From: Ignavibacteriota bacterium
Lineage (GTDB): Bacteria; Bacteroidota; Ignavibacteria; UBA10030
Assembly (NCBI GenBank): GCA_963790045.1
Contig: CAWBMS010000007.1
Span: 591,545-655,544 of the forward strand
Length of the DNA: 64,000 nucleotides
Reading direction: 5' to 3'
Both the position numbers and the translations under genes were made by a program. This document shows positions 50,184 to 64,000 of the stretch, piece after piece; the first letter of the stretch is position 1, and the number at the start of each line of letters is the position of its first letter. Under the pieces are notes generated by a model. That model worked only from the letters and a program-made list of their open reading frames with translations, searched no databases and was not told the DNA's origin.

Positions 50184-51626
50184 TTATTTCAACACGGAGT
50201 ATTGCTGCACCAGTTCCCATACGCGCTGAATTTGTTTCTCCGATGTTGCCACGTTGCCGATGGCAAGACGGATCACAAACTTGCCGTTCAGTTTTGTTCC
50301 CGCCAAAAATGCTTCGCCGGTGGCGTTAATGGAATTGATAATATTCGTGTTGAGCTGTTCCAACAAGCTTTCGTCGGATATATGTTTTGGATGGAAACGG
50401 AAACACACCACGCTGAAGTTCACCGGCGCGATGCGTTCGTAATTGCCGTCGGCTTCGAGCCACGATGTAAACGCTTTTGCTAATCGACATTGTTCACGCT
50501 GCTTTGCAGCGATGCCATCCACACCGTAGAAACGAATGATGAACCACAATTTCAGCGCGCGGAATCTTCTGCCGACTGCACGCCCAGTCCATGTAATTGG
50601 TTGCATCGCCGTCGGAAGTTTTTAAATATTCCGGCACGAGCGAGAACGCACGCTTCAGCGTATCCACGTGGCGTGTGAAGAGCACGCTGCAATCCATTGG
50701 TGTGAATAATGATTTATGCGGATTGACGACCATCGATCGGCAAACTCGCATCCGTTGATGATGTGTTTCATCTCCGGCATCGTCGCCCAGCTTCCACCGT
50801 ACGCGCCGTCCACGTGCAGCCAGATGTTTTCGCGTGTGCAGATGGCGGCAATTTCCGGTACAGGATCGATACTTGTTGTTGCAGTCGTCCCAATCGTTGC
50901 CATCACGGCGAACGGCAGGTATCCGTTTTTCTTATCTTCTGCAATCGCTTGTTCTAATTTTTGTACATCCATTCTAAAAATATTATCGGAGGGAATTTTG
51001 ACAACATTAATTCGTCCGATACCGAGCACGAGACCAGCTTTTTCTCCCGATGAATGCGTCTGGTTGGAAATATACAAACGCAGTTTCGGCAAATCGTTTC
51101 GTCCTGCAAGCCCTTCTTCGCGGATGTGTTTCTGCGTTGCCTCGCGTGCCGCCGCAAGTGCAACGAGCGTCGAGACGGAAGCGCTGTCCGTAATGACACC
51201 ACGAAATTGTTCCGGCAGCCCGATCATTTGGCGCAGCCATGTGAGCACCACTTCTTCCAATTCCGTTGCTGAAGGCGACGTGCGCCAGAGCATGCCGTTG
51301 ACGTTCAGCGCGGTGCAAAGCATCTCGCCCAAAATTCCCGGTGCAGATGCGGAGTTGGCAAAGTACGCAAAGAACGACGGATGGTTCCAGTGCGTAATGC
51401 CCGGCATGATAATGCGATGAAAGTCCGCAAGGATCGTGTCCATTCCTTCCGGTGCGGCGGGCGGCGCGGCGGGAAGCTGCTGTTTAATATCGCCGGGTTT
51501 CACCTGCGCGAGCACGGGATATTCTTCCGGATGTTTTAAATAATCGGCAATCAGATCCACGACTTCTTTGCCGTAGGTGCGGAAGGATTCGGGATCGACG
51601 TGAGGTAATGGCGTTTGTGTATTCAT
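50184..51626 (-). pseudogene. group II PLP-dependent (aromatic-L-amino-acid/His-type) decarboxylase, broken into three frames
   Basis: Fragment 50655..51626 (...HWNHPSFFAYF...LHVDGAYGGS...EFAD). Fragment 50494..50751 (SMVVNPHKSLFTPMDCSVLF...NYMDW). Fragment 50184..50606 (GRRFRALKLWFIIRFYG...). Together they reconstruct one ~480-aa enzyme. Confidence 0.85.
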
Positions 51627-51761
51627 AAATTTTTAAGAAATGTCCGTGTGCATAAAAATATTCTCGCTGCGAGGCAGCGAACCGAATATAAATAACGAAG
51701 AATATTTTGCGGATGCAAGATACCGGAGGCGCAGAGTGAGTGCGCGGTTTCCTGGAACGAG

Positions 51762-52097
51762 ATGCCGGAACTTTTGTGTGATGGAACGGCGATGATGAAC
51801 GACATGCCGGAAGAATTTTATAACCGAGCGATGCTTCTCTATAATAGAATGGCAGATGCGAACGGTTTGCCAAAAACAATGTGCAGCATGCCCAACGTTG
51901 CGTACAACATGCCGGGGCTTTGCAGCGACATGCCCAAAGCGTCGAATGACTTGCCGAAGGTTTGGTATGATATACCCAAGCCGCTGAATGGCATGCCGAA
52001 GCTTCTGAATGGCTTGCCCAAGGTTTGAATGGCATGTCGAAGCTTATGAATGATTTACCCAAGGTTTGGAATGACTCACCCAAGCCGATTTATGCCT
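51762..52097 (+). pseudogene. ORF composed entirely of 16 tandem heptad repeats ([MLI]-P-K-x-x-[NY]-[DNG]), interrupted by one 1-nt-short unit; alternatively a non-coding 21-bp phased array
   Basis: ATG 51762. Strict 21-nt periodicity of the ATGCCNAA core through 52077, except one 20-nt unit (52007-52026) that creates TGA 52026-52028. Restoring 1 nt extends the frame to TAA 52095-52097. Pro/Lys/Leu codons vary synonymously. Confidence 0.45.
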
Positions 52098-52137
52098 AAA
52101 ACGAGCTAAATTGCCGTTTTTTTGCTTTTACACTTAT

Positions 52138-52288
52138 GGTAGTCGAAAGCTTTAGCTTCCGTATTTGTGGCAGGCACGAAACCTATCCCGAAGGTATGGA
52201 GACTGTTTAAAAAATCAAATAACAGCGGTAGCCGAGGACTTTAGTCCTCGCATTATTCTGGAAACGAAACCTAAAGGTTTCGGCTACC
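52138..52288. repeat. cluster of REP-like GGTAG-headed hairpins (CGA class)
   Basis: GGTAGTCGAAAGCTTTAGCTTCCG (52138-52161). GGTAGCCGAGGACTTTAGTCCTCGC (52227-52251). Inverted CGAAACCTAAAGGTTTCGGCTACC (52265-52288). Confidence 0.7.
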
Positions 52289-52869
52289 ATACCTTTTAGA
52301 GAGAAAAATCATAAAAACAATTTGCTTTTAATTCGTAGAATTACAACATTATACCCAGAATTCTAAATCAAACAGGTTACAACTTAAATAGTGCGGGAAG
52401 TGTGTGATGGTGAAAGAATTTTTTTTATTGTGTGATTTTTAATGGGCGAATGTGTGATTGGTGGTCGTTCATGGTTATTGGTGAATGGGATACTAAGTAT
52501 GATTATTCTTTTCTCTTGAAAGAAAAGAACCAATCACGAAGTGATACCATTGGCAAAGATCAAGACTGATGAAAAATATTGTAAAATCATCGAATGTGTC
52601 TCTTGCAAAAAATAAACTTGGTCGCCTTTGGCGACCTCAAACAGTATTTTTTGCAGGTATGCCCCGACACATTCTCGATTTTGTACCAATATTTTTCAAA
52701 GGTCGAAAAAAATAATATGAGAAGTTCATTTTATTGTAGCGTCTTTGCGAGGCGCGAAGTTCCGCAGGGACGAGCAACGAAGCAATCTGATATATGGCGG
52801 AAGAAATATTTGATTAGATGAATTTGTGATGGTAGAATGGGTGATTGAAGATTCGGAATGGCGATGAAA

Positions 52870-52964
52870 GAATGGAAGAAAAATATTTTACGCGAGATAT
52901 GTGAACCGAAGCGGAACTTCCGAAACGACGTTACCAAGCAGAGCTTGGTAACGAGAGTAAAAAA
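52870..52964 (+). repeat. conserved ~95-nt 5' leader module, copy 1
   Basis: About 80% identical by eye to 55137-55230. Contains hairpin TTACCAAGC-aga-GCTTGGTAA (52931-52951), then CGAGAGTAAAAAAA and ATG 52965. Confidence 0.65.
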
Positions 52965-53775: not shown

Positions 53776-53852
53776 TCACCGCGTTGTGAAGGAATTACAC
53801 TCCTGAACAAAAGAGGTCGTGATAGATCTCACTCCCAGCTTGGAGCGAGAGG
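53776..53852. repeat. short intergenic element E, copy 1
   Basis: TCACCGCGTTGTGAAGGAATTA-CACTCCTGAACAAAAGAGGTCGTGA-tagat-CTCACTCCCAGCTTGGAGCGAGAGG. Shares both conserved blocks with 54471-54590. Confidence 0.6.
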
Positions 53853-54470: not shown

Positions 54471-54590
54471 TCACCCGCGTTGAGAAGGAGTTCTGCCAAA
54501 GGCGAATAAATGCACTCCTGAACAACAGAGGTCGTGAGTCCCGCCAAAACGAATGCGGGCAAGCCCACTCACTCCCAGCTTGGAGAACGG
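54471..54590. repeat. short intergenic element E, copy 2 (with internal insertions)
   Basis: TCACCCGCGTTGAGAAGGAGTT...CACTCCTGAACAACAGAGGTCGTGA-[30-nt insert with CCCGC-N10-GCGGG hairpin]-CTCACTCCCAGCTTGGAGAACGG. Confidence 0.6.
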
Positions 54591-55136: not shown

Positions 55137-55230
55137 GAATGGAGAGAAAAATATTTTGTGTGCAAAGTATAAACGGAAGCGGAGCTTCCGAAAAGACTAC
55201 TAAGTAGAACTTGGTAGCGAGAGTAAAAAA
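55137..55230 (+). repeat. conserved ~95-nt 5' leader module, copy 2
   Basis: Homologous to 52870-52964. Hairpins CGGAAGC-gga-GCTTCCG and CTACTAAGT-aga-ACTTGGTAG (55197-55217), the latter with compensatory changes relative to copy 1. Confidence 0.65.
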
Positions 55231-61963: not shown

Positions 61964-62627
61964 ATGGAACGTGATGAGAAAAATACGCCGGCTCTTGATC
62001 TTTTATCTGCCGGTGAATTTTCCTGTTGGCTCCGGCGCATGCGTTCATCGTTACTGAATGGAAAAAACATGAAAGTTCCATGCGGCGAGTGCACGGCGTG
62101 CTGCCGCGCATCGTTACTTTATTCATATCAAAGCAAACGAAGCTAAATCATTAAAGCACATTCCCAAAGAATTATTGTTTCCTGCTCCGCTGCATCCTGA
62201 GGGAGATCATGTGATGGGATACGATCGTGATGGCCGGTGTCCGATGTTGAAGAAAGAGGGCTGTTTGATTTATCAGTATCGTCCGGAAACATGCCGCACA
62301 TTCGATTGCAGAATTCTCGCAGCAGCCGGACTTACATCGGCAGAAAAACACAATCCAGTTTTTCAACAGGCGAAAAGATGGAAGTTTACCTTTCCGGCAC
62401 AAAAGGATCGCGAAGAATTTGCCGCGGTTCAACGTGCTGCAGGGTTTTTTCAAAGTCATCCCAACCTTTTTGGCGATGCTGTTTCCCAGATGGATGCGAT
62501 CCGGATGTCGGTCGCTGCGGTAAAAGTGTACGATCAATTTGTGGATAGTGACGGGAAGCGAGCAACTACGCAAGAAGTGAGGAGAACGTTTGAGGAATTC
62601 GAACATGTTCAATCACGCAAAAAATGA
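61964..62627 (+). pseudogene. YkgJ-family (CxxCxxCC) zinc/iron-chelating protein, frameshifted near 62111-62117 (or assembly indel)
   Basis: ORF 61964..62146 has VPCGECTACCRAS then junk. The next frame reads YFIHIKANEAKSLKHIPKELLFPAPL...GRCPMLKKEGCLIYQYRPETCRTFDC (track ORF 62175..62627). One extra T sits in TCGTTAC. Confidence 0.7.
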
Positions 62628-63059
62628 AAGCAATAAAGCGATGAACGGTTTCGTGATTAAGAGAACAGAAGATATCGAACTTCTTATCAAGTTCGTAAGG
62701 ATTTTTGTGTAGAATCTTCATTCCGAAACTTTCGACAACAAAAGGAACAAACTCGAAACGAACATGCGGGATTTTTACAGAATGAGTTATGCTGCGGTGC
62801 AGCCCTTCTTATTTATTCTACGCCGCCAGACTCAAATCTGTCATCACAAAACGGATTGAAGAATGGGCGAAGAAATGTTACATTGCAGCAAGTATTTTAT
62901 GTGGCATGCAGCAAACTAAAAACGACAGACATGCAAAAAAACTTCTTTGTAGAAAACTCTTTTGTTGCATTATCCGTTGTGTCTTTATATGGAATCGATC
63001 AGACAATGACATGCCAAAATGTTTTTAATAAGTTTGCTCTCTCAATAAAAAGGAATACT

Positions 63060-64000
63060 ATGATGAAATACCTTCTAACGATTGTGCTCTTTTGCTGGGC
63101 CTCCATGCTGTGTGCACAGGATTGGCCCCGCGAGGTAGTAAGCACCGAAGGTACCATTACGATGTACCAGCCGCAGATCGAATCGTACTCGGGAAATTCT
63201 CTGAAGGCACGTGCTGCCATTTCCTTTCTTCCGGAAGGAAAAGACGATCCCGTCTTCGGTGCGATATGGATCGATTGCCGCGTATTGACCGACCGCCCGA
63301 CACGAACCGTGACGCTGGAAGAAATGGAAGTACGAAGAACCCGATTTCCTTCCGGCACCGATGTGGATACGGCAAAGGTCGCTGCGGCATTGGAAGAAAA
63401 GATACCGCATTTTAACCTCACGTTTTCACTCGACCTGCTTTTAGAAAGTGTTGAAACTGCTCAGAAAGAGAAAGAATCCATCAGCGAACTTGAAACGACT
63501 CCGCCGAAAATTATCGTTATGGATCATCCTGCTGTTCTGGTTCGTATCGATGGCGATCCCATTTTCAGCGGCAAAGAGGGAACATCTCTGGCACGTGCAG
63601 TCAATACGCCGTATTTTTTAGTGCAAGACCGAAGCGCCAAACTATTCTATCTTCATGGAGGAGATTACTGGTTCAGCGCTGCAACTATTCACGGCCCATG
63701 GAATCAAACGGATATTCCTCCGCAATCGGTTGTTGATCTTTATGAGCAAACAATATCTGATGACACATTGGAAGCAGATTCCATCGCTAATGATTTTGTA
63801 TCAAGCACCGGTAAATTGCCGGAGATTATTGTAAGCACTGAGCCCGCCGAATTGATTGCAACCGACGGCGCAATTCAATTTGCACCGATTGAAGGAACCG
63901 AACTTCTGTATGCGAGCAATACACCAAGCCGTGTCTTTCTGGAAATCAATACACAGACATATTTTATTCTTATTTCCGGGCGATGGTTCACTGCAGCAAA
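63060..64000 (+). CDS. secreted hypothetical protein, 5' part (runs off the window)
   Basis: Not in the ORF track (no stop). AAAGGAA upstream. MMKYLLTIVLFCWASMLCAQ signal peptide, then an open frame to position 64000. The antisense track ORFs here are shadows. Confidence 0.55.
   Translation, partial: MMKYLLTIVLFCWASMLCAQDWPREVVSTEGTITMYQPQIESYSGNSLKARAAISFLPEGKDDPVFGAIWIDCRVLTDRPTRTVTLEEMEVRRTRFPSGTDVDTAKVAAALEEKIPHFNLTFSLDLLLESVETAQKEKESISELETTPPKIIVMDHPAVLVRIDGDPIFSGKEGTSLARAVNTPYFLVQDRSAKLFYLHGGDYWFSAATIHGPWNQTDIPPQSVVDLYEQTISDDTLEADSIANDFVSSTGKLPEIIVSTEPAELIATDGAIQFAPIEGTELLYASNTPSRVFLEINTQTYFILISGRWFTAA

Follow-up and report, generated by a model that had tools for sequence, protein, structure and literature searches.

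At positions 51762-52096 of the window, by which we mean the whole stretch of 64,000 nt that was analysed, lies a tandem array of 335 nt in which 16 units follow each other head to tail, each 21 nt long save one of 20 nt (Table 1). It occupies an intergenic slot of variable content that is bounded by two conserved flank blocks, upstream of a divergently oriented gene for a PLP-dependent decarboxylase, the ATG of which (51626) is separated from the array by a spacer of 135 nt. To judge from its sequence, the conserved block within this spacer is probably the promoter region of the decarboxylase gene. The other neighbours of the array are small genes without assigned function, the first of which starts with a signal-peptide-like stretch. 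The genes of this downstream island look secreted or lipoprotein-like, and no regulator gene is found adjacent to the array. Between the array and the island lies a MITE/REP-like element, the right part of which has at least 8 copies in the genome. A kinship between the array and this element was considered and dropped, with a shuffle-test p-value of about 0.35.

Table 1. Features in and around the 21-nt array (window coordinates)
Feature	Position	Strand	Remarks
Tandem array	51762..52096	+	16 x 21 nt; the 20-nt unit is 52014-52033 in the window assembly
Degenerate 'unit 0'	51741..51761 (about)	+	In frame ...CAVSWNE; 5' of the first ATG
88-codon ORF	51762..52028	+	As in the window; truncated by a missing G; TGA at 52026-52028
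One-base gap GTTTG-AATGG	52026..52027		L112 reads GTTTGGAATGG here, which restores a 112-codon ORF
TAA ending the repaired ORF	52097..52099	+	Part of the conserved 3' flank; GAA in the ortholog
Divergent group II PLP-dependent (aromatic-amino-acid-type) decarboxylase	50184..51626	-	
Conserved spacer block ATAAATAACGAAGAATATTTTGCGGATGCAAGA	51688..51721		Common to L114, L124 and G001
Terminator-like hairpin, then T-rich run	51663..51681	-	Between the conserved block and the decarboxylase ATG
Conserved 3' flank block TTATGCCTAAAACGAGCTAAATTGCCGTTTTT	52090..52122		p = 0.005
MITE/REP-like element	52118..52308		45-nt inverted arms; directly after the array
Non-coding block	52301..52421		88% identical to the L124 lineage

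The first-pass annotation of this DNA had described sixteen perfectly phased 21-nt units, one of them shortened to 20 nt, and the periodicity is indeed real. In an autocorrelation of the array, the fractions of matching bases at lags of 21, 42 and 63 nt were 0.46-0.48, compared to 0.24 ± 0.04 elsewhere (z = 5.5-6.1), and no signal at these lags was seen in the flanks. The unit table likewise bears out the phasing, but to speak of sixteen clear copies is generous, because identity to the array consensus ATGCCGAAGCTTTTGAATGAC ranges from 7/21 (unit 5) up to 19/21 (unit 12), and units 2, 4, 5 and 6 agree with it at merely 7-11 of the 21 positions. It is mainly a 63-nt super-period that holds the 5' third of the array together. 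Owing to this degeneracy, TRF detected the last 3-4 well-kept units and no others. Unit-by-unit orthology shows that units 1-8 are old and each recognisable on its own, and units 9-16 form a younger zone with three unit types, characterised by AAGCTT, AAGGTTTGG and AAGCCG. The two palindromes that had been noted within the units, GGCATGCC and GAAGCTTC, are present in the array, and the positions that had been listed for the recurring core are shifted by +1. About one third of the columns of the array vary by transitions alone, which applies across all three codon positions, and the unevenness of column conservation within the array, as counted from the unit table, does not exceed binomial noise. 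No second copy of the unit motif was found anywhere in the genome. Immediately 5' of the first ATG, a further and degenerate unit ('unit 0') can be recognised, which is kept in the ortholog described below (TTCTTGGAACGAG versus TTCCTGGAACGAG). Since no start codon precedes it, unit 0 falls outside the ORF, and the repeat is therefore slightly larger than the ORF.

The translation of the + frame, and the TGA that closes it within the 20-nt unit, are exactly as they had been given in the first reading of the sequence. It had also been predicted that the restoration of one nucleotide would open the frame up to the end of the repeats. This prediction was borne out by L112, a contig of the same species from an independent ENA metagenome assembly, which carries an extra G at window position 52027. 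On L112, the array consists of 16 x 21 nt, and the ORF comprises 112 codons ending in LPKVWNG...SPKPIYA and the stop codon. The TAA that serves as this stop had been placed at 52095-52097, and its actual position is two nucleotides further on (Table 1). Across 3.6 kb, seven substitutions and five indels of a single base separate L112 from the window. The decarboxylase gene, which in the window is split into parts of 323 and 140 aa by indels at 50576, 50583 and 50736, is intact on L112 with 481 aa, and a 229-aa protein encoded 870 nt downstream of the array is present on L112 as well. Since both the array ORF and the decarboxylase are intact on L112, the window assembly has either indel errors or strain-specific lesions. 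The comparison of the two assemblies thus indicates that the 20-nt unit stems from an indel of the assembly or from strain variation and is no feature of the element, and the same view applies to the 'decayed' decarboxylase. It should be noted that no gene is called at the array, either in the genome record (NCBI/ENA) or on L112.

An exhaustive phmmer search of 1.8 billion proteins with the heptad protein returned one true homolog, P0128, a protein of 113 aa with 50% identity over residues 1-86 (E = 3e-18). Four short contigs, which derive from three sources, encode P0128, and it was called as a gene by three pipelines (JGI, Logan and ENA). In all three places shown, it is paired divergently with a decarboxylase sharing 82% identity with that of the window. 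The orthologous array on L124 has 12 units that are colinear with those of the window, with the same ATG and no frameshift over 84 codons. At the DNA level, the two arrays are 71.8% identical over 252 nt without any small indel, the identity per unit ranging from 13 to 20 of 21 positions, and each of units 1-8 is best matched by its positional partner in L124. Copy numbers amount to 16 units in the window and L112 versus 12 in L124-L126, and the terminal unit and the flank are the same in both cases. Indeed, unit 12 of L124 is followed by a homolog of the window's 3' flank, and the window species therefore has four extra units, which lie within the distal, more homogeneous half. The array thus changes by whole units in its distal half. 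In this flank, the TAA that ends the ORF in the window species is replaced by GAA in L124, and the frame runs on for 29 further codons, which correspond to non-coding sequence in the window's species. The spacer between array and decarboxylase measures 222 nt in L124, as compared to the 135 nt in the window, which implies that the phase relative to the promoter is not kept.

Three lineages with decarboxylases closer to that of the window lack this array. In G001 and L122 (decarboxylase 88% identical), the spacer of 240 nt leads to a different neighbour and contains no array. L121 (90%) has another gene in place of the array. L114-L116 (91%) carry a different array of 5.6 copies of a 43-nt unit, each unit with two hairpins. 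The L114 array lies between the same flank blocks, namely ATAAATAAC...GCAAGA towards the decarboxylase and TTATGCCTAAAA... at the opposite end, and the block TTATGCCTAAAACGAGCTAAATTGCCGTTTTT is located directly 3' of the array in the window, of the 12-unit array in L124 and of the unrelated array in L114. The homology of the flanks between L114 and the window is significant (p ≤ 0.005), and the similarity of the interiors is not (p of about 0.35 in a shuffle test), so that the 43-nt unit was rejected as a relative of the 21-nt unit. At this slot, L114 has an unrelated array of period 43, not 42, and L124 retains both position and sequence. On the question of conservation in relatives, which the first-pass annotation had made decisive for its proposals, the outcome is divided: one lineage keeps the array, and in three it is absent or replaced.

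Other searches were largely without result. The repeat ORF has no match in Pfam, NCBIfam, PHROGs or the PDB sequences, no Rfam covariance model matches the array, and a word-indexed protein search with the repeat ORF returned nothing. When 86 genomes of the family and 401 of the phylum were scanned, the array was found in the window's own genome only. A scan of genome contigs gave a chance match of 10 residues in a 3125-aa surface protein and nothing else, and a first scan of metagenome contigs revealed no relative of the array. A DNA pattern of three units retrieved 63 metagenome loci, which were rejected as heterogeneous 21-nt repeats selected by the pattern itself; at L075, which is one of them, the real frame is FAQIDER. 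Likewise, the look-alikes P0148, P0158, P0168 and similar proteins from the phmmer search represent other 21- or 42-nt arrays in other organisms, and their similarity is no more than would be expected of heptad repeats among 1.8 billion proteins, so that they are not regarded as homologs. An apparent match in G001 turned out to be a chance similarity of 35 nt inside a gene. No signal peptide is predicted for the repeat ORF, and AF2 yielded only short helices and no confident fold (pLDDT 48, pTM 0.27). Coiled coils do not tolerate a proline in every heptad, and a coiled-coil heptad protein was rejected because nearly every heptad contains a proline and the pLDDT is as low as 48. A 199-aa ORF on the minus strand was discarded because it scores -0.23 per codon, extends over the start of the decarboxylase gene and is disrupted once the sequence is repaired. 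A coiled-coil reading of a minus frame ('IxxLxxx') has stops in the last units and lacks a start codon, and neither neighbours nor motif symmetry support a reading of the units as ARG boxes.

The codon usage of the + frame is gene-like. When stops are ignored, the frame has a log-odds score of +0.084 per codon, where real genes have a mean of 0.17 and shadow ORFs of -0.18. Its sense-codon usage corresponds to the 12th percentile of real genes, a level reached by 0.9% of the shadow ORFs and 0.3% of the composition shuffles. Frame +3, with stops ignored, has an equal sense-codon score. Among the 16 units of the array, pN/pS amounts to 0.62, which is the lowest value of the six frames (p = 0.004 in a column-shuffle test, before correction for six frames and about 26 arrays), and only 7% of the column shuffles were stop-free in all 16 units. 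Variation among units in codons 2-3 of the unit (CCN AAR) is mostly at the third position. As an observation on the side, the ORF displays several traits that would suit a proto-gene, namely an ATG of its own, gene-like codon usage, a frame that is open and unshifted in two lineages, and extension by whole heptads.

The comparison between the window and L124 gives a different picture. Identities at the three codon positions are 65, 77 and 73%, and the NG86 dN/dS value of the + frame is 0.60, compared to 0.62 in frame -1 and 0.68 in frame +2. At 4-fold sites, 17 of 20 positions in the array are identical, which is to be compared with 72% for the whole array and with 102/180 for the 4-fold sites of the decarboxylase gene (p = 0.016). 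A BLOSUM test of the translated orthologs against random substitution gave p-values of 0.05-0.09, and of 0.076 with a column-preserving null model. The antisense frame -1 is open in both lineages as well, and with 71 random substitutions the + frame would remain open with a probability of 0.17-0.24. No Shine-Dalgarno motif precedes the ATG of the array; AGGAG is 15-fold enriched upstream of the genes of this genome. Two things are kept between the orthologs, namely the phase and columns 1-6 of the unit (ATGCCG, Met-Pro), the latter being more conserved than the rest (63/72 versus 117/180, p = 0.0003). Pure neutrality does not explain this conservation of columns 1-6. The tests of protein-level selection on the + frame are weak or negative, and such selection is not demonstrable. 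Of the earlier proposal of a small protein consisting solely of heptads, the repair of the + frame and an ORF that is intact in both L112 and the ortholog have thus stood, and neither frame-specific selection nor a conserved stop codon was found.

The period of the array is shared by other intergenic repeats of the same genome. In an alignment-free scan, the best lag from 9 to 69 was determined for each 210-nt segment of the 2.89-Mb genome. This revealed 32 periodic loci, 26 of which, including the present array, have a lag of 21, 42 or 63 (±1), and TRF runs on the whole genome gave a sharp peak at period 21 and its multiples. All but two of the 26 loci that fit the rule fall outside gene-like ORFs, and in most, each of the six frames contains stops. 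The unit consensus sequences of the 26 loci are unrelated to each other, with a mean best circular identity of 10.5/21, compared to 9.8 for random 21-mers. The genome therefore holds at least 24 intergenic tandem arrays with unrelated units, the period of which is locked to 21 or 42/63 bp. When 800 kb of each of three relatives were scanned, 3 of 4 loci fitted the rule in G018, 0 of 8 in G005 and 0 of 2 in G052, and the latter two results show that the scan has no built-in bias towards 21. Since 26 of 32 loci obey the rule, the 21-nt period is a property of the intergenic repeats of this lineage and not of a heptad protein. Moreover, two of the larger arrays, on contigs C1 and C11, have 3-4 frames open simultaneously and contain 'heptad' ORFs of 130-240 aa on both strands, so that an ORF over such an array is expected by chance. 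With about 26 arrays and six frames each, one open and moderately gene-like frame is not surprising. Lengths of 21, 42 and 63 bp correspond to two, four and six turns of the DNA helix. The earlier suggestion of a DNA array phased at two helical turns has thus gained support as far as the phasing is concerned, and lost it with respect to a dedicated binding array for the decarboxylase gene. Searches of the full-text literature found no description of a 21-bp period rule for Bacteroidota or Ignavibacteria.

We consider it somewhat better than an even chance, with a probability of roughly 55%, that the array is an old, partly decayed, non-coding and positionally conserved member of the period-locked intergenic minisatellites of this genome, and that the ORF is a by-product. 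A founding unit without a stop in the + frame would, once tandemly repeated, read as a heptad ORF, because 21 nt are seven codons. The start would be provided by the unit's own ATG and the stop by the TAA of the flank. The lock on the period may arise when arrays are made, by slippage or repair with a two-turn preference, or when they are kept up, by phased binding or bending by an abundant architectural protein. In either case, the cause of the lock would be a two-helical-turn ruler, acting in repeat formation or in protein binding. Any effect of the array on neighbouring promoters would be dispensable.

A serious, if less likely, rival reading is that the ORF is nevertheless translated, either as a lineage-restricted protein of 112 residues composed only of [M/L/I]-P-[K/E]-x-x-[N/Y]-[D/G/N] heptads, or as a proto-gene. 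The translated version could be a gene of recent origin that arose from a 21-bp minisatellite, or a small protein that evolves fast and gains heptads, and with a proline every seven residues it would probably be extended or disordered, not a coiled coil. This view draws on the intact 112-codon ORF in L112, on the syntenic P0128 with its unshifted frame and its gene calls in the JGI, Logan and ENA assemblies, on the gene-like codon usage, and on the pN/pS value and third-position variation within the array. However, the selection seen between the orthologs is not frame-specific, with 4-fold sites being the best conserved and the BLOSUM test not being significant, conservation does not extend to the stop codon and the last 29-30 residues, and a Shine-Dalgarno motif, a signal peptide, a family and a fold are all lacking. 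The closest relatives are without the array, it is uncalled in L112 and in the genome record, and similar ORFs cover other arrays of the same genome in several frames. The proto-gene version, according to which a heptad-repeat protein arises de novo from a period-locked minisatellite under an enforced 21-bp ruler, seems unlikely to us; since 21 bp are seven codons, each such array would be a ready-made heptad ORF.

A dedicated cis-regulatory array would place sixteen sites with the core [A/T]TGCC on the same face of the helix for cooperative binding of a regulator or architectural protein, with the divergent decarboxylase/hut genes or the downstream island as proposed targets. The strict phase without small indels between orthologs, the conservation of core columns 1-6 including positions that would be synonymous, and the location directly upstream of a conserved promoter-like block are in line with such a function. 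Nevertheless, we judge it improbable: lineages with the same decarboxylase and promoter block have no array or another one, the array has no regulator gene next to it, the island genes resemble those for secreted proteins or lipoproteins, and the unevenness of column conservation in the array stays within binomial noise. A dedicated decarboxylase array is not supported, because three lineages dispense with the array and its unit occurs at a single locus. Very improbable, finally, is a function as RNA, be it a repeat-rich leader or sponge transcribed from the + strand, or a transcript of the minus strand terminating at the hairpin (51681-51663). The terminator-like hairpin just past the array on the minus strand and the third of columns that vary by transitions only would suit this reading, but there is no Rfam match, no conserved pairing scheme was found, and the predicted folding of the two strands is no better than that of shuffled sequences (z = -1.6 and -1.0).

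The main interest of a non-coding, period-locked minisatellite lies in the rule rather than in the single array, since about 80% of the periodic loci in this genome have periods of 21, 42 or 63 bp with unrelated sequences. If it is true that a dedicated mechanism or an architectural protein sets this ruler, it would represent a new feature of bacterial chromosome biology, and translation of such arrays, if it occurs, would offer a natural source of new repeat proteins. For annotation, the findings imply that in this clade an open frame is not enough to call a heptad ORF composed only of repeats a gene. They also imply that the 'frameshift' of the array should be read, like the broken decarboxylase gene, as a feature of the window assembly or strain that is absent from the second assembly of the same species.

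Several known systems resemble the array in part. The iteron arrays of theta-replicating plasmids and phages consist of direct repeats, about 17-22 bp long and spaced at roughly two helical turns, on which the bound proteins face one side. The present array is also made up of direct repeats with a period of about two turns, but unlike iterons it comprises 16 degenerate copies, is absent in close relatives and is located outside any replicon context. An iteron origin or partition site was accordingly rejected, as no rep or par gene is adjacent and the contig is chromosomal with 679 kb. With heptad coiled-coil proteins and multi-core RiPP precursors, the ORF shares a period of seven residues, a conserved motif of 2-3 residues in alternation with variable positions, and a varying number of units. 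A multi-core RiPP precursor was nonetheless rejected, since the ORF consists of repeats only, has no leader peptide, and no maturation enzyme is encoded nearby, the island genes including no enzyme family.

The tandem repeats of Borgs are pervasive and fast-evolving, have independent origins, and are either intergenic or encode mostly disordered repeat peptides (PMC9879509). They have many unit lengths and are near-perfect and recent, and those within ORFs are reported to be under strong selection (PMC9879509). Unlike in Borgs, the period is fixed here, the array is degenerate, and selection at the protein level is not detectable. BrickBuilt of Porphyromonas gingivalis is a minisatellite-containing MITE built from a 23-nt unit. 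The copies of this single family, about 19 in number, are dispersed and always intergenic, have leader and tail pieces and are said to have promoter activity (PMC4596501). Like BrickBuilt, the present array belongs to a Bacteroidota lineage, is intergenic and consists of tandem units without spacers. It differs in its 21-nt unit, in the single-copy nature of the unit sequence and in its locus-specific flanks, and a BrickBuilt-type MITE minisatellite was rejected because the unit has no other copy in the genome and the adjacent MITE-like element is dissimilar. Intergenic minisatellites or VNTR of bacteria, such as the MIRU-type loci of mycobacteria, are head-to-tail arrays of units of tens of bases between genes. 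The array described here is like MIRU-type loci in that copy number changes by whole units between lineages and that the unit length is a multiple of three, so that short ORFs appear. Unlike MIRU-type loci, it is one of about 26 sequence-unrelated arrays that share a period of 21, 42 or 63 bp, and it is old and degenerate, with its first eight units individually orthologous in a sister lineage.

Relative to L112, an ENA assembly obtained independently for this species, the window shows five one-base indels in 3.6 kb (at 50576, 50583, 50736, 52027 and 52492). Three of these (50576, 50583 and 50736) split the PLP decarboxylase gene of the window (50184-51626, minus strand). The L112 copy is intact and encodes 481 aa. 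The apparent decay of the decarboxylase in the window reflects either an artefact of assembly or a lesion specific to the strain.

On the other side of the array, the non-coding stretch 52301-52421 shares 88% identity with the sister lineage L124, whereas identity is only 57% at the 4-fold sites of the neighbouring decarboxylase. Within the decarboxylase, 4-fold identity with L124 was higher in the first 160 codons (47/70 versus 55/110, p = 0.03). The non-coding block is either a functional element (a promoter or a small RNA) or the sign of a recent exchange of the island downstream of the array. The right part of the MITE/REP-like element (about 52186-52300) is present in at least eight copies across the genome, and one copy was found in the same-genus genome G001. 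Upstream of the decarboxylase, the terminator-like hairpin was not seen in G001 or L124; it may be a leader or an attenuator.

Coordinates of the hairpin, the MITE/REP-like element and example arrays of the same genome (C, contig)
Feature	Position	Strand	Remarks
Terminator-like hairpin	window 51663-51681	-	TTCGCTGCCTCGCAGCGAG plus T-rich run; between conserved promoter-like block and decarboxylase ATG
MITE/REP-like element	window 52118-52308		45-nt imperfect inverted arms; immediately 3' of array
Array	C1 10522-11172		
Array	C11 12811-13398		
Array	C7 417460-418068		
Array	C13 28393-28896		
Array	C15 73060-73542		

Upstream of several island genes (52942-52957, 53837-53852, 54577-54590 and 55208-55223) lies (A)GCTTGG(N)A(A)CGAGAG, a motif that in two cases forms the 3' arm of a perfect hairpin of 9-10 bp. 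TTCCTGGAACGAG, upstream of ATG 51762, is similar but is simply unit 0 of the array.

Arrays with a period of 21, 42 or 63 (±1) bp, that of the window included, make up 26 of the 32 periodic loci of the genome. At the 25 further loci the tandem repeats are degenerate, span 200-650 nt and differ in unit sequence without any relation to one another; almost all of these arrays lie between genes, and some have 3-4 simultaneously open frames. In a lineage with a 91%-identical decarboxylase, this intergenic position is occupied by a tandem array of 43 nt x 5.6 (L114 3469-3709; also L115 and L116), which is unrelated to that of the window, is bounded by the same two conserved flank blocks and carries two hairpins per unit (AACCC-N4-GGGTT and TTCCGCC-N5-GGCGGAA).

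Further 21/42-nt arrays occur in the metagenome contigs L080, L056, L074, L087, L127 and L129. These are look-alikes, selected by DNA pattern or phmmer, whose kinship is not demonstrable. Contigs from freshwater samples bear several separate arrays each, with the translation RVNDLPKxVND; L087 has CTTCCCAAGTGGAACYATGRC in 17 near-perfect copies, and in L127, from a T9SS-bearing Bacteroidota, a 42-nt x 5 array lies between genes.

Lastly, along contig C7 (679 kb), cumulative GC skew is lowest at about 238 kb and peaks at about 654-656 kb (window about 62000-64000). The window may adjoin a replication terminus or a strand-switch point.
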